IMG/VR virus record: IMGVR_UViG_2778261067_000006 | Location: 1 to 39,603 of that record | Reading direction: 5' to 3' (one strand) | Source: a virus | Lineage: Duplodnaviria > Heunggongvirae > Uroviricota > Caudoviricetes | Length of the DNA: 39,603 bases | Shown here: piece after piece, positions 7,522 to 39,603 of the stretch | Position numbering within the stretch: the stretch's first letter is position 1 | Layout: the number at the start of each line of letters is the position of its first letter | Position numbers and translations under genes: made by a program | The notes under the pieces: model-generated | Databases searched by the model: none | The model's input: the letters and a program-made list of their open reading frames with translations, nothing else | What the model was told of the DNA's origin: nothing

Positions 7522-7887
7522 TTACTTAACCAATGATGCTGCATATTCGATAAGGTAAAGTTTTGGAGCAAGCCAAATTTTCAGCCAGTCGAAATAATTG
7601 AAGAAAACAACAATAGAAGTAATCGCTATTCCTGATGTAACAAGTAGTGATAAAAGAACAATATCTGCATCATCTCCTTTATTCCATGCAAAAATCATCA
7701 GATAAACACACGCTATAATCACCAATACACAGATAGCCTGAATTCCAGCTGATGATACGGCGTGCCACATCAAAAGCTGATGGATGACATCAGGAATCTG
7801 TGCCTGGCTAAATGAAACAGCCGCGTCTATTCCATTGCTGGCTTTTTGCAGTAGTTCTACGAGAATCTTGTTTGCTTGTTCTTCCAT
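7522..7887 (-). CDS. Small integral membrane protein (121 aa) in the sieB-like position
   Basis: ORF with an AAGGTGA SD; soluble N-terminus followed by two to three hydrophobic helices; flanked on both sides by terminator hairpins. Confidence 0.55.
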   Translation of the reverse strand: MEEQANKILVELLQKASNGIDAAVSFSQAQIPDVIHQLLMWHAVSSAGIQAICVLVIIACVYLMIFAWNKGDDADIVLLSLLVTSGIAITSIVVFFNYFDWLKIWLAPKLYLIEYAASLVK

Positions 7888-8206: not shown

Positions 8207-8506
8207 TCAAATAAGTGGTTTGCTGCCTAATTTCATTTTCTGGCGACCAACACAAGTCACACCCATTTCACTGCGTGGCTTGCGGTAGTAAATACGATTC
8301 TGTTTACTCTCGACTTCTTCTGTCTTCTTGCAGCGAAGGCTTCCGAGTGATGCTGCTTTGTCTGCTCTGACGCAACCAGAGAGCTTTAGCGCAATTTTTC
8401 GCGCCAGTCGCTGTTCTTGCATTGCCTGTTCACGTTGATCCTGTCTGCGTGCTCTGCGGCGATTTCTGGCGTTATCGTCAGCCAGATATGTAATGACTAC
8501 TGTCAT
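8207..8506 (-). CDS. N: Antitermination protein N
   Basis: N-terminal arginine-rich motif (NARNRRRARRQDQRE); C-terminus ...YYRKPRSEMGVTCVGRQKMKLGSKPLI parallels lambda N ...WYSKPGERGITCSGRQKIKGKSIPLI; GGAGGT SD. Confidence 0.85.
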   Translation of the reverse strand: MTVVITYLADDNARNRRRARRQDQREQAMQEQRLARKIALKLSGCVRADKAASLGSLRCKKTEEVESKQNRIYYRKPRSEMGVTCVGRQKMKLGSKPLI

Positions 8507-8648
8507 GTTGACCTCCGATGATTGACTTTGGCGATTGGATGGCCGGTGCTGAACTCCGGCTTATTTACAGGCACCTTGTTCTCCCGAAGCTCTCCTGCGC
8601 GCATCAGCCTGCGCATTCATCCAATCCCAAAGCCAACTACTCTTTGGT

Positions 8649-8689
8649 TCCCGCATTTCGGCGGGACAATCCCATCAATGTTAAAGAGC
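8649..8689 (-). promoter_or_regulatory. nutL (boxA GCTCTTTAACA plus boxB hairpin)
   Basis: Minus strand has the boxA consensus followed by the hairpin TCCCGC-CGAAAT-GCGGGA, in the N leader; an almost identical copy lies downstream of cro. Confidence 0.7.
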
Positions 8690-8736
8690 CTGCCAATCTG
8701 TTCCGTTTGGCTTCCAGCGTCCTGCTGATGGCTAAA

Positions 8737-8833
8737 GAATACTGTAGGTATTTTATTGTGTAAATACCCAAGGTATTTATTTTTGATGAAATAATGATAA
8801 ACAAATGAATACAAAGGATATTTATTTTTTCGC
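8737..8833 (-). promoter_or_regulatory. OL operators (three AATAC-N5-GTATT-type sites) with PL
   Basis: Sites at 8737-8753, 8762-8778 and 8817-8833 (the third degenerate). Minus strand has -35 TTTACA, a 17-nt spacer and -10 TATTCT overlapping them. Confidence 0.55.
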
Positions 8834-8908
8834 TGTCTGCTTGTTCAGTGATTTTTATGCGGGATATGTGAAGTGGATCCCGATAGCTATTGCTGCCGGG
8901 ATTATGGG

Positions 8909-9277
8909 TTAGTCAGCGAAGGTTAAGACGAGAATTACCTTAATGATGTCTGCTACAACAGACACGGCCATAGATAAACCAAAGACGATCCAAGCCACAG
9001 TGATGTCTTCACTACCATCGTATAGAGTTCCGTAATCACTGGTGTAAGGCGTAAATGTCGCGCCTTGATACAATAGGTATAAGCTTGATCCATAGAGGAT
9101 AAATGCAGATATCCCTTGTATTGCTATGATCACAAGAATCATGAAACGAGCTGATCTATGCGCCCAAGCCTGGCTTATTTTTTCTGATAGAGATTTCGCA
9201 ATAAAAGCATGCGCTAAGCCGTAAATTGTCGAGATTGCCAACATCGCAAAAAAGCTTGCTATAGCGGTTCCAACCAT
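8909..9277 (-). CDS. Small three-helix integral membrane protein encoded immediately downstream of cI
   Basis: ORF-track ORF 8909..9298 begins at a TTG overlapping the cI stop; an in-frame ATG at 9277 has an AAGGGG SD. Three predicted TM segments; same strand as cI with no terminator between. Confidence 0.55.
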   Translation of the reverse strand: MVGTAIASFFAMLAISTIYGLAHAFIAKSLSEKISQAWAHRSARFMILVIIAIQGISAFILYGSSLYLLYQGATFTPYTSDYGTLYDGSEDITVAWIVFGLSMAVSVVADIIKVILVLTFAD

Positions 9278-9294
9278 AATCGCCCCTTGCGTGA

Positions 9295-10011
9295 TCAAAC
9301 CAGCCTTAGTTTTGTCTCAATTGCAACGCCTATAATCTTGCAGTTTCCATTGATTGGCACGAGAGGCCATGCAGGATTAAGTCCCTTGAGGTATTTATTT
9401 CCGCCGTCGATTATCAGCTTCTTGAATGTTGCTTCGTTAGAGTCAGAAAGTTTTGCTATGACCAAGCTGCCGTTGATCGCCTCCCTTCCGGTATCGAAAA
9501 GAACGAATGTTCCCTCTGGAATGCTTAACCCAACCGGTGCCGTCATTGAATCACCTTCCACTTTAAGCCAAAACGCATTACCTTGAATATGCGCGTCAGA
9601 CTCAAGCCAAACATCTATGTCTTTAATGGTGTATGGTTCGCATGCTTCACACCACGAGCCAGCCTGGATACTGCTTAACACCGGATACCTCTTTCCTGCT
9701 CTGTATTCCCCTGCATACCTTACGTTGGCATCGCTCTTAAGGCTTTCTGCCTGTTCTGCAACCTTGGCAGCAATTGACTGGCTAAAATCAGCAATTGAGA
9801 CTTGCAACAATCGCGCAAAACCAGATGCAACCTCAACGTTTAGCGCGTTTCTGCCATTAAGATAATGCCCTACCGCTCCTTGGGTGATACCCAGTTCATC
9901 AGCGATTGAGTATTGGGTTATTCCCAATTCTTTCTTTTTTGACTCATACAAAGCCTTAAGCCGCTTAGCGTCTTCGAGCTGTTCTGTCGTCAGTGATTTT
10001 TTATTTTCCAT
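9295..10011 (-). CDS. cI: CI repressor (lambda-type, HTH N-terminus and LexA-like autocleavage C-terminus)
   Basis: 238 aa; ...LTTEQLEDAKRLKALYESKKKELGITQ... parallels lambda CI ...[27 protein letters not shown]...; C-terminal ...FWLKVEGDSMTAP... carries the S24 peptidase motif. Confidence 0.9.
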   Translation of the reverse strand: MENKKSLTTEQLEDAKRLKALYESKKKELGITQYSIADELGITQGAVGHYLNGRNALNVEVASGFARLLQVSIADFSQSIAAKVAEQAESLKSDANVRYAGEYRAGKRYPVLSSIQAGSWCEACEPYTIKDIDVWLESDAHIQGNAFWLKVEGDSMTAPVGLSIPEGTFVLFDTGREAINGSLVIAKLSDSNEATFKKLIIDGGNKYLKGLNPAWPLVPINGNCKIIGVAIETKLRLV

Positions 10012-10045
10012 AGCTTAATTCTAATAGCTAAGGTACTTAAACTAA

Positions 10046-10087
10046 AAATACCCTGAGTATTGATTGCTTTGAATACCTGTAGTATTC
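10046..10087 (+). promoter_or_regulatory. OR operators (two clear AATAC-N5-GTATT sites) overlapping PR
   Basis: aAATACcctgaGTATTg (10046-10062) and GAATACctgtaGTATTC (10071-10087); putative PR -35 TTGATT and -10 TATTCT overlap them. Confidence 0.55.
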
Positions 10088-10117
10088 TTTGTTCATGGTT
10101 AATAACGGAGAGTGCAT

Positions 10118-10312
10118 ATGATTCGAATGACACTTGCCGATTACGCCAAAATCCATGGACAGGCTAAAGCAGCCAGTGACTTTGGTGTAATCCAGTGCGC
10201 TATCAGCAAGGCCATTCTGGCAGGCCGTAACATTATGGTTACGGTAAAGCCTGATGGCAGTGTGATTGGAGAGGAAGTTCGTCCTTTCCCAAGCAACAAG
10301 AAAAACAAATAG
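10118..10312 (+). CDS. cro: Cro repressor
   Basis: [24 protein letters not shown]...RPFPSNKK parallels lambda Cro [25 protein letters not shown]...KPFPSNKK; ATG at 10118 with GGAG SD. Confidence 0.85.
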
Positions 10313-10319
10313 TAACACC

Positions 10320-10362
10320 GCTCTTTAACAGTCATGGTCCTTATTCCCGCCGAAATGCGGGA
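10320..10362 (+). promoter_or_regulatory. nutR (boxA GCTCTTTAACA plus boxB hairpin)
   Basis: Same boxA and identical boxB hairpin (TCCCGCCGAAATGCGGGA) as nutL, just downstream of cro. Confidence 0.7.
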
Positions 10363-10420
10363 ATACAACGCGCATCAGTTGGTGCGCATAACTTCTTATT
10401 TGTTAAGGAAATACTTACAT

Positions 10421-34295: not shown

Positions 34296-34781
34296 CTATC
34301 TGATATTGCTGCTACTGTTACATGTTACCGTGTTTCCAAATCCTGAATTGCAGTTTGTATATGTGTCAACGCGTGTTGGGTAAGGTTGAGTTATAACAGG
34401 CTGGCGCGCTTTTTGCTCGATCGCTTGCATTGTGTTTACAGCCTGATAATTCAATAAAGCCTGCTGGAATGCTTGGCTTTGTGCTATTTGTTGTGCTTGT
34501 TCTTGGCTTTGTAATTGAACATAAAGATTCTGAAGTTCAAGTCTTGCCTGTGTGTCACTTATCTTGCCTTCATCGACACCTTGCCCGAGCATCTTCGCAG
34601 CAAGGACATAAAGCTTAGGTGTTGGTGCTGATGCCATGCGTGAGTCGTTCTTCACACTGGCATCAAGGCAATTAGCCATATCGCTAAGCTTTTGATAGCG
34701 TTGTTCGCAACTTGCTTGATAGTCACTTACTTTTGCGCATCCAACCAGCAGAAGCGGGATAATTAACAGTGATTTTTTCAT
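34296..34781 (-). CDS. Lipoprotein (signal peptidase II signal MKKSLLIIPLLLVGC), Gln-rich, several Cys
   Basis: Start at the ATG with AAGGAG SD; lipobox LLVGC; Ala at +2 suggests outer-membrane sorting; convergent with gp16 and co-oriented with mnt. Confidence 0.6.
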   Translation of the reverse strand: MKKSLLIIPLLLVGCAKVSDYQASCEQRYQKLSDMANCLDASVKNDSRMASAPTPKLYVLAAKMLGQGVDEGKISDTQARLELQNLYVQLQSQEQAQQIAQSQAFQQALLNYQAVNTMQAIEQKARQPVITQPYPTRVDTYTNCNSGFGNTVTCNSSSNIR

Positions 34782-37170: not shown

Positions 37171-38232
37171 TTATCTTAGTATTATCCTCGCTATTTTAGC
37201 ACATGGTGCTTCAATCAACATATGTATGACCCATGCTATCGTTATAAACAAAATTAGAAGAAGCGACATTTTTGGAAATCCATGCATATTGCTTATATAT
37301 GGGATGCTGTACATGTATTTATTCAAGGCGTTATAAACAACCAAATGCGACAGATAAAGAGAATACGATATATTGGCAAAAAACATTAAAATTCTGTAAG
37401 TTCTAATGCCGTTTGTTATCTCAATTGATAAAAATGATAGAATAAGAATAAAACACCCAATCCCAACTTTATCAATTCCATGCCCATATTCAGGTGGCGA
37501 TATTATCATTATTATTGATAGCAGCAGCGCTAATATTTGCAAAGGAGAAATGAAGTTTCTTTTTATTGTGATGTTATTTTTTATAAACAAAAAAACATTA
37601 CACATAAGCATACCGATAACAAACTCAATCATCATCTGCGATGATGTTATCTTTACTATCGATTCTAGAGGCCCGTTTATGTTAATTGATGCGTAAGCAG
37701 AATAATCGCCGCTGTTATTGAAAATGAAGTTATTTATCACAAATAAAGTCAGTATAAAAACCGAACAAACAAATGCTCTGAATTTATGAGATATTAACAT
37801 TGATATTGTAAATATAAAATAAAACACAACCTCATAAGATAGGGTCCACGCTGCTGACACCATAGAATATCCATAGAATGGAGCTATAGATGAATAATCA
37901 TATTGTATGAAAAAAAGCGATTTATATAAATCTAAGGTGGTGTAGCTATTTATTGATAAAGCATAACTTATGAGAATGGCAATCAAATAAATCGGATATA
38001 TTCTAAAAAATCTCTTTATTGCAAATGATTTTATTGATGAGTCATTCTGTGTTGAAAAAACTATTACAAAGCCGCTTATCATAAAAAAAAGATCTACGCC
38101 AAAGTATCCATAGTCAAAAAGAATATCTCCTAAATTTTCCTGAGCATATGCTCCTGCAATTATCGATCTCAGATGAAAAAGAACTACAAAAAGAGCCGCA
38201 ACACCTCTAAGATAATGTATTGAAAGTACCAT
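37171..38232 (-). CDS. Acyltransferase-3 family integral membrane protein (Oac/OafA-like O-antigen acetyltransferase)
   Basis: 353 aa, about ten hydrophobic helices, N-terminal IHYLRGVAALFVVLFH motif; strongly AT-rich; sits between tailspike and integrase as oac does in Sf6. Confidence 0.75.
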   Translation of the reverse strand: MVLSIHYLRGVAALFVVLFHLRSIIAGAYAQENLGDILFDYGYFGVDLFFMISGFVIVFSTQNDSSIKSFAIKRFFRIYPIYLIAILISYALSINSYTTLDLYKSLFFIQYDYSSIAPFYGYSMVSAAWTLSYEVVFYFIFTISMLISHKFRAFVCSVFILTLFVINNFIFNNSGDYSAYASININGPLESIVKITSSQMMIEFVIGMLMCNVFLFIKNNITIKRNFISPLQILALLLSIIMIISPPEYGHGIDKVGIGCFILILSFLSIEITNGIRTYRILMFFANISYSLYLSHLVVYNALNKYMYSIPYISNMHGFPKMSLLLILFITIAWVIHMLIEAPCAKIARIILR

Positions 38233-38445: not shown

Positions 38446-39603
38446 TCACTCTACCTTCCCATCAATCCAGTCCGCCCACCACTGCATCATCTCCCTGCGC
38501 TTATCGAAATACTGCGCATGGTTGTAAATACCGCGCACAGATCCGCCGTTGGCATGTGCCAGTTGCACTTCAATAGCATCAGCAGGCCATTCGTGCTCGT
38601 TCATAATCGTGCTGAATTCATGCCTGAATCCGTGACCGCTTTCCAGCCCTTCATAGCCAATTTGTTTGATCACAAGCAATACCGCGTTCTCGCAGATTGG
38701 CTTCTTCTTATCGTTGCGCCCGGCAAAAACAAACTCTGAGACTGGTTTGGTGATTGAGCTTAGCGTAGTGAGAAGTTCAACCACCTTGTCTGACATCGGG
38801 ACCACATGAATTTTGCGTCCCTTCATCACACTGGCGTCGATGGTGATAATCCTGTTTTCAAAATCGACGTTCTTCCATAGCATGGAACGAAGCTCTTTTG
38901 TTCTTAGGGCTGTGTAGCGTAAAACTTTGGTCGCAATGAGCGATACGATACTTCCTGAAAATGTTGCCAGTGCTTTGTTGAATGCAGGGATCTGGTCTGC
39001 TGGAAGAAACGGGAAGTTCTTCTTGCGGTATCCCTTCATGGCGTCAGCAAGGTCAGGTGCTGGGTTATATTTAGCCCTTCCGGTGACAATAGCGTAACGG
39101 AAAACCTCGCCGCATCTTCTGCGTGCTTTGTTGGCTCGCTCCATTGCACCGCGATCTTCAAATCTGCGGATTACTTCCAGCAGTTGCATCGGCTCAATAT
39201 CCTGAATTTCAAGGCCGCCGATGATAGGTAAAATGTCGTCATCAAACATTTTTGCAAGTTCAGTTGCATAGCCTACTGACCAGACTTGCTTCTTGTGCTC
39301 GTACCATTCCTTGTAAATCGCACTAAAGGAATTGTTGTTAGACGAAGCCTTTTTCGCTTTTACCGGATCGATGCCAACCGAGATGTCTTTCCTCGCGGTC
39401 CATGCCTTATCCCTTGCCTCCTGCAAAGTCATAAGCGGATATTTTCCTACGGTCAGTATTTTTTCCTTACCGTCAATCTTGTAGCGAAGCTGCCATACCT
39501 TTTTCCCGGATACAGGGACATAAAGGTACAGGCCATTACCATCGAGAAGGCGATATGGTTTTTCTTTCGGCTTTGCTGCTTCAATCTGCTTAACGGTGAG
39601 CAT
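38446..39603 (-). CDS. int: Tyrosine integrase (P22/Sf6/CPS-53 IntS-like)
   Basis: 385 aa with catalytic-region motifs (…HGFRHEF…, …RGIYNHAQY); N-terminus MLTVKQIEAAKPKEKPYRLLDGNGLYLYV as in IntS-type integrases; start codon is the last base of the window. Confidence 0.9.
   Translation of the reverse strand: MLTVKQIEAAKPKEKPYRLLDGNGLYLYVPVSGKKVWQLRYKIDGKEKILTVGKYPLMTLQEARDKAWTARKDISVGIDPVKAKKASSNNNSFSAIYKEWYEHKKQVWSVGYATELAKMFDDDILPIIGGLEIQDIEPMQLLEVIRRFEDRGAMERANKARRRCGEVFRYAIVTGRAKYNPAPDLADAMKGYRKKNFPFLPADQIPAFNKALATFSGSIVSLIATKVLRYTALRTKELRSMLWKNVDFENRIITIDASVMKGRKIHVVPMSDKVVELLTTLSSITKPVSEFVFAGRNDKKKPICENAVLLVIKQIGYEGLESGHGFRHEFSTIMNEHEWPADAIEVQLAHANGGSVRGIYNHAQYFDKRREMMQWWADWIDGKVE

Follow-up and report, generated by a model that had tools for sequence, protein, structure and literature searches.

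The 39,603-nucleotide (nt) stretch of DNA considered here, positions 1 to 39,603 of the IMG/VR record IMGVR_UViG_2778261067_000006 (the window), is overall a P22-like temperate phage genome with integrase, O-antigen acetyltransferase, tailspike, portal and terminase genes. We were interested in one small gene of its immunity region, which lies on the minus strand directly behind the cI repressor gene, and whose product an original prediction, made from the letters alone, had proposed as a membrane protein of the lysogen and a candidate single-gene exclusion or abortive-infection determinant. The immunity region is 99.7% identical at the DNA level to that of coliphage HK620 (AF335538), where the counterpart of the gene, hkaS (AAK28867, product 'unknown'), has been catalogued between cI and OL/pL since 2001; the window protein and HK620 HkaS share 98.3% protein identity, with 1-2 residue differences (A11G, G20V). 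Judging from this identity, hkaS is not a new gene, but one already annotated in HK620.

Start codon, transcript and predicted topology of hkaS

When read from a TTG codon at 9298-9296, the minus-strand open reading frame (ORF) at 8909..9298 comprises 129 codons, and its first codon overlaps the TGA of cI (9297-9295) in the form TTGA. A second possible start, an ATG at 9277-9275, lies 21 nt past the TTG; it is preceded by a Shine-Dalgarno sequence, AAGGGG, at 9288-9283 with a 5-nt spacer, and the gap between the cI stop and this ATG is 17 nt. The original prediction had left both options standing, and only the second is kept in homologues. Proteins with 82%, 60%, 54% and 52% identity are all exactly 122 amino acids (aa) long, and each opens with M-[VI]-G in register with the ATG. 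When the DNA of the cI-hkaS junctions is aligned, neither a Salmonella locus (L003) nor a Logan locus (L007) shows the TTG/TGA overlap, L003 carries an in-frame TAA immediately 5' of the ATG, and a purine-rich Shine-Dalgarno sequence is conserved in all aligned loci. The unconserved TTG, the TAA of L003 and the fact that all the diverged homologues start at the ATG rule out the TTG start, and argue that hkaS is the minus-strand coding sequence at 8909..9277 (122 aa plus stop) with the ATG as its true start. The 21-nt extension up to the TTG (9278..9298, minus strand), which holds the Shine-Dalgarno sequence at 9283-9288, is probably untranslated.

The first cistron of the pair, on the same strand, is the cI repressor gene (9295..10011), identified by its HTH_3 and Peptidase_S24 domains (Pfam, PHROG) and annotated as cI in HK620. 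A consensus scan of the 17-nt gap and of the 3' part of cI recognized no promoter-like or terminator-like sites, in agreement with the earlier claim that no terminator separates the two genes; the first hairpin comes after hkaS, which is the only ORF between cI and OL. This hairpin, a stem-loop at 8877..8902 on the minus strand, begins 7 nt past the hkaS stop, with a centroid energy of −13.7 kcal/mol and z = −2.3 in RNA folding. Three diverged loci, L003, L007 and L009 (Salmonella, Logan and Hafnia, respectively), have hairpins of other sequence in the corresponding place, and none of the hairpins 3' of hkaS has a clean U tract. The stem-loop is likely to be a terminator-like element at the 3' end of the cI-hkaS transcript, and it may act as a weak terminator or as an RNA-stabilizing 3' structure. 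At its other end the lysogenic transcript presumably starts in the OR region, with the position of PRM taken by analogy to lambda: OR3, OR2 and OR1 and the PRM/PR region occupy 10022..10086 (plus strand), with operator matches at 10047-10061 and 10072-10086, and HK620 annotates OR1-3 and pR there. By the same analogy we infer that PRM would give a joint cI-hkaS transcript in lysogens, and PRE another while lysogeny is being established. Short Logan/ENA contigs containing hkaS were considered as possible transcripts and turned out to be ordinary fragments, and a search of Rfam returned no match in the interval 8400-10400.

Three hydrophobic segments can be recognized in the 122-aa form on the Kyte-Doolittle scale, at approximately residues 1-27, 44-70 and 92-122. 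AlphaFold2, working from only seven sequences, produced a model with a mean predicted local distance difference test (pLDDT) score of 92 and a predicted template modelling (pTM) score of 0.79, in which helices span residues 2-29, 31-38, 41-74 and 89-121 and a short beta-hairpin occupies residues ~78-86. Thus ORF, hydropathy and model all agree with the original description of a three-helix membrane ORF directly behind cI on the same strand, and we predict with high confidence that HkaS has three helices and resides in a membrane, presumably the inner one. Loop 1 (residues 28-44) contains K28, K33, R41 and R44 together with one acidic residue, while loop 2 (residues 71-93) contains D81, D87, E90 and D91 and no basic residue; because of these loop charges the positive-inside rule predicts an N-out, C-in topology, with loop 1 cytoplasmic and loop 2 periplasmic. 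Invariant residues include Q54 in helix 2 and D110 and K113 in helix 3, immediately after which the protein ends with the sequence LVLTFAD.

Distribution and divergence of the immunity module

The family to which HkaS belongs is very small. A word-indexed search of 5.8 billion proteins retrieved 12 clusters, whose named members come from E. coli, Hafnia paralvei and Salmonella enterica, and a profile hidden Markov model run against 1.84 billion representatives at 50% identity gave 2 matches. In PHROG the protein falls into family 6534 (unknown function; E = 2.7e-78), with residues 8-129 of the ORF read from the TTG aligned to positions 1-122 of the 122-position profile. The statement in the original prediction that no family could be recognized therefore needs to be qualified, as PHROG 6534 and HK620 hkaS both exist, while it stands inasmuch as neither has an assigned function. 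Searches of Pfam and NCBIfam gave nothing above noise for HkaS (a Pfam TssN line with E = 0.046 was dismissed, at 13.6 bits against a cutoff of 30.3 bits), and a sequence profile search of the PDB gave 0 matches. Further carriers are the lambda-like phage HK630, mEpX2, HK140, HF4s, HZ41, vB_EcoP-611R6, the enterohaemorrhagic E. coli phages phi296 and phi367, and two Stx2c phages.

Among 5,426 complete E. coli genomes, 146 (2.7%) carry hkaS, at 147 places in all and intact at every one, and the counts for the HK620-type cI are identical (146 genomes, 147 places); wherever a genome was listed by both searches, the two genes are neighbours. HkaS and a cI of at least 99% identity are encoded by one and the same set of 16 records in the phage collection. 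The cI-hkaS arrangement of the window recurs in HK620, HK630 and five E. coli prophages, and in the diverged homologues examined (52-82% identity) hkaS lies 17-20 nt after cI, with cro divergent upstream and N downstream. In the window cro occupies 10118..10312 (plus strand), divergent from cI and annotated in HK620; together with cI and hkaS it makes up the co-diverging immunity module. N differs between loci (19-35% identity), and this exchange places the boundary of the module just downstream of hkaS. Virions of the P22-like, lambda-like and Stx-phage types are all represented among the carriers of the module, and thus HkaS is tied to immunity rather than to one kind of particle.

Outside the HK620 type the position between cI and PL has varied contents. 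In lambda it holds rexA-rexB and in phage 434, whose cI is 52% identical, it holds Hex; in Erwinia phage Eho49 (cI 65% identical) it is occupied by an unrelated 200-aa protein with no hydrophobic segments; in Serratia phage OS31 (cI 71% identical) it is empty, and in P22 there is nothing between c2 and OL. In the Serratia phage, vB_SspS_OS31 (L018 2212-2746), whose cI lineage is the nearest one outside the HK620 type, the ~535 bp after cI contain no forward ORF of at least 40 aa. The content of the slot between cI and PL therefore changes from one immunity type to another; phages of the HK620 type have hkaS as a constant component of a cro-cI-hkaS unit. The notion of a cargo slot, as originally proposed, is borne out by a position that matches those of rexAB, hex and bstA; what has to be given up is the idea of cargo swappable within the HK620 immunity type, in which hkaS is a fixed, co-diverging member.

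Between diverged modules synonymous sites are saturated. The cI proteins are 86-95% identical, with about 0.08 nonsynonymous substitutions per nonsynonymous site (dN), and the Cro proteins are 79-92% identical (dN 0.02-0.16), compared with an identity of 52-82% for HkaS (dN 0.33-0.44; 0.10 for the closest pair). The dN of hkaS is 4-5 times that of cI, and its omega, the ratio of dN to the synonymous rate dS, is 0.15-0.2 where dS is unsaturated. A closer comparison was made with eight modules (the window, HK620, HK630 and the five E. coli prophages, four of which encode the identical cI protein WP_000428318): codons with nonsynonymous variation and codons with only synonymous variation number respectively 9 and 8 in hkaS, versus 3 and 38 in cI (Fisher p = 3e-4). 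As an example, residue 20 of HkaS (window 9218-9220) is G, V or C among near-identical E. coli modules in which cI is identical or one residue apart. Across lineages the invariant share of residues is 17% in the predicted periplasmic loop, 53% in the cytoplasmic loop and 100% in the C-terminal ILVLTFAD. These comparisons show that HkaS is clearly under purifying selection, while being much less constrained than its neighbours and having its freedom mainly on the predicted outer face.

The same data bear on the simplest alternative, that hkaS is a non-functional or chance ORF. No function is annotated for it, and a few database members (P0006, P0007, P0009) have a frameshifted N-terminus of 30 residues, these being possibly rare pseudogenes or sequencing errors. 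However, the length of exactly 122 codons has been preserved down to 52% identity and over saturated synonymous divergence, omega is well below 1, the Shine-Dalgarno sequence is conserved, the model reaches a pLDDT of 92 from only 7 sequences, and the gene is intact at all 147 E. coli places; conservation effectively refutes this explanation, to which we assign hardly any probability.

A second alternative is that HkaS is an accessory of lysogeny control that damps RecA-dependent cleavage of cI, or acts at the membrane on the FtsH/HflKC-dependent turnover of CII/CIII, and in this way tunes establishment or spontaneous induction. The equal counts of cI and hkaS in genomes and phage records point in this direction, as do the co-divergence of cro, cI and hkaS while the neighbouring N was exchanged, the predicted orientation of the most conserved parts of HkaS toward the cytoplasm, and the inclusion of hkaS in a PRE transcript during establishment, which would be expected from the HK620 annotation. 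There is also a precedent in 434 Hex, the 'repressor protection protein', which lysogens make from the PRM mRNA as its second product, and whose gene directly follows, and overlaps, the related cI; it acts on RecA-mediated cleavage of the repressor and stabilizes the lysogen (PMC3564112). The slot between cI and PL, therefore, does not always hold exclusion genes. However, Hex has a signal-peptide-like N-terminus and no predicted transmembrane (TM) helices, and is unrelated to HkaS in sequence: its probability was 0.08% in profile comparisons by hhalign, which covered SieA, RexB, SieB, the P22 holin, 434 Hex and the Erwinia Eho49 slot protein and remained below 1% in every case. Moreover, a spacing of 17 nt would by itself predict the linkage of hkaS to cI, close relatives of this cI do without a gene in the slot, and residues of HkaS change while cI and Cro stay identical, unlike what is expected of a tightly co-adapted partner. 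On balance we consider a role in lysogeny control unlikely.

Carriers of hkaS include gut and pathogenic E. coli, among them O111 and O145 Shiga toxin-producing strains (STEC), as well as Salmonella and Hafnia, and this distribution is compatible with a third alternative: a host-fitness gene (moron) unrelated to phages, by which HkaS would alter the envelope physiology of the lysogen, for example its tolerance of bile, acid, colicins or antimicrobial peptides, or the activity of a transporter. Expression in the lysogen is presumed and a membrane location is predicted, small membrane proteins often regulate larger membrane proteins, and the G+C content of hkaS, at 42%, is somewhat lower than that of cI (45.5%) and of the whole window (46.5%). 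On the other hand, there is no similarity to a known factor of this kind in Pfam, NCBIfam or the PDB, the characterized occupants of the slot target phages or the repressor, and the family is confined to one prophage immunity type instead of being spread among chromosomal loci. A host-fitness function is accordingly given a low probability.

Comparison with known systems and proposed function

The slot between cI and N is a documented hotspot of defence genes expressed in the lysogen, for example rexAB and bstA (PMC8585504), and we infer that an exclusion or abortive-infection function fits both this position and the predicted membrane location. BstA of the Salmonella prophage BTP1, encoded just downstream of the repressor and highly expressed in lysogeny, is a single-gene defence that acts at cytoplasmic sites of phage DNA replication, causing abortive infection (PMC8585504); unlike HkaS it is not a small membrane protein. 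The closest working analogy, as far as the predicted localization of HkaS allows, is provided by SieA of P22, a small three-TM inner-membrane protein which is made in the lysogen and blocks DNA delivery alone (PMC10461980). The two share a small size, an origin in prophages and three predicted TM helices, but SieA is longer (164 versus 122 aa), its hhalign probability is 0.3%, its cytoplasmic motif FnRYPnEAnnFNK is absent from HkaS, and sieA lies between genes 16 and 9 while hkaS follows cI.

Lambda RexB shares with HkaS the slot, cotranscription with cI from PRM (presumed for hkaS) and the character of a small polytopic membrane protein. It differs in being a protein of 144 aa with about four hydrophobic segments, in its dependence on RexA, and in an hhalign probability of 0.7%; RexB is usually described with four TM helices. 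There is no rexA-like gene beside hkaS. The comparison with RexB and with the holins is relevant to the possibility that HkaS is an abortive-infection effector, dormant until, upon infection, it oligomerizes and depolarizes or permeabilizes the membrane, whereupon the cell dies before the phage cycle is completed. For class I holins (lambda S, P22 gp13) the hhalign probability was 0.4% with the P22 holin; HkaS is without a charged C-terminal tail, and its gene is in the immunity region, not in a lysis cassette. Despite the shared slot and the predicted membrane location, such an effector seems to us improbable. No homology was found to SieB of P22 and lambda (hhalign 0.1%), and library scans, PADLOC and hhalign together turned up no relationship of HkaS to RexB, to SieB or to a housekeeping membrane protein, the kind of match that would have counted against the original prediction.

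The function that we favour is an anti-phage one exerted at the membrane by the product of the second cistron of the repressor operon, which would be translated from its own Shine-Dalgarno sequence and ATG in the HK620-type immunity module. As predicted, HkaS would be almost wholly embedded in the membrane, with a periplasmic N-terminus, a basic and well-conserved cytoplasmic loop of 17 residues, an acidic and variable periplasmic loop of 23 residues that includes a small beta-hairpin, and a cytoplasmic end, ILVLTFAD, that is invariant and follows D110 and K113. Made constitutively in the lysogen and non-toxic, it would reside in the inner membrane and hinder heteroimmune superinfecting phages at the cytoplasmic membrane; the step most likely to be blocked would be genome entry, as with P22 SieA, HK97 gp15 and T4 Imm, to which HkaS is unrelated, and contact with the incoming phage would be made by the part exposed to the periplasm. 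In favour of this reading are the position in a defence hotspot, the predicted membrane character that recalls SieA, a coding sequence kept intact while evolving faster than cI and varying most in the predicted periplasmic loop, and the occurrence with several virion types. We put the probability of a membrane-level anti-phage function, broadly defined, at about 0.4, and regard the specific block of genome entry as less probable than that.

Several observations weigh against an anti-phage function. A literature search on hkaS, HK620, mEpX2, HK620 lysogens and lambdoid hotspots found no paper on hkaS and thus no experimental datum. None of the defence families in PADLOC-DB v2 matched HkaS at E ≤ 1, the hhalign probabilities for SieA, RexB, SieB, Hex and the holin are all negligible, the BFVD fold search gave no match at E ≤ 0.001, and the fold searches as a whole produced only generic helical bundles. 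The faster evolution of hkaS may equally reflect weak constraint, as omega is below 1; the difference in invariant residues between the periplasmic and the cytoplasmic side (27% versus 47%, p = 0.024) was obtained with a partition chosen post hoc; and the strict linkage to one type of cI could suggest lysogeny control instead. Finally, the empty slot of P22 and OS31 indicates that no function is obligatory at this position.

Two bolder ideas may be mentioned together: HkaS could be a stand-alone resistance protein of new mechanism, gating genome entry for several tail types by means of its variable periplasmic hairpin, or a membrane-anchored partner of the switch that couples the state of the envelope to the stability of cI. 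With either of these the co-inheritance with cI and Cro would be functional and not mere adjacency, but we consider the pair quite unlikely.

If hkaS has a phenotype, it would account in part for the way many natural lysogens behave on superinfection, as the gene is present in 2.7% of complete E. coli genomes, and the cI-hkaS module is carried by O111/O145 STEC, by Stx2c phages and by the model phages HK620, HK630, mEpX2 and HK140. Should the anti-phage function be confirmed, a minimal orphan membrane protein would join the short list of single-gene exclusion determinants. Defence cargo behind cI is already well established, and unless hkaS works by a new mechanism it would add a further example. 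The exclusion hypothesis, built as it is on analogy, appears reasonable to us, and hkaS is a good and cheap experimental lead in well-known model phages.

Operators and other features of the window

Beyond the 3' stem-loop of the cI-hkaS transcript, OL1 (8738-8752) and OL2 (8763-8777), which together span 8738..8777 on the plus strand, are exact matches to AATACnnnnnGTATT and overlap pL as annotated in HK620; a promoter-like site is present at pL on the minus strand (8764..8736). A third operator-like site, AATACAAAGGATATT, with one mismatch to AATACnnnnnGTATT, is located at 8808..8822 (plus strand). The search with the operator pattern returned 5 sites versus 1.1 expected. This third site coincides with the tIMM of HK620, which maps to window positions 8797-8827 and forms a weak, all-A/T hairpin; the block with which it coincides (8797-8829) is invariant across all the diverged loci. 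We have rejected tIMM as a terminator, its weak all-A/T hairpin coinciding with a conserved operator-like site. The OL3 annotated in the HK620 record (window 8784-8800) matches the operator consensus poorly, and by its sequence the site at 8808-8822 is probably the true OL3.

On the plus strand, an ORF of 35 aa (8805-8912) starts inside the operator-like block and runs convergent with hkaS, its end overlapping the hkaS stop; it was rejected as a gene, being interrupted by a stop after 10 codons in L003.

Three further features of the window, away from the cI-hkaS locus, deserve mention. An ORF at 34296-34781 (minus strand) lies on the opposite strand in the interval from the gene 16 homologue to the tailspike, which is where P22 has sieA. 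When read from an internal Met, its product starts with MKKSLLIIPLLLVGC, a lipoprotein signal that contains a lipobox; the ORF matches PHROG 6067 (unknown function), and BLASTP gave no similarity to P22 SieA. From these features it could be a lipoprotein expressed in the lysogen and another candidate for exclusion. In the PL operon, downstream of N, the minus-strand ORF at 7522-7887 encodes 121 aa with two hydrophobic helices, and has an unusually low G+C content of 38.5% (33% at third codon positions); it belongs to PHROG 3054 (unknown function), and its matches to the PADLOC '2TM effector' are sub-threshold (E about 0.06-0.09). At 37171-38232 and 38446-39603, both on the minus strand, an O-antigen acetyltransferase-like gene adjoins the integrase; it is probably a lysogenic-conversion gene, modifying the receptor, of this P22-like phage.

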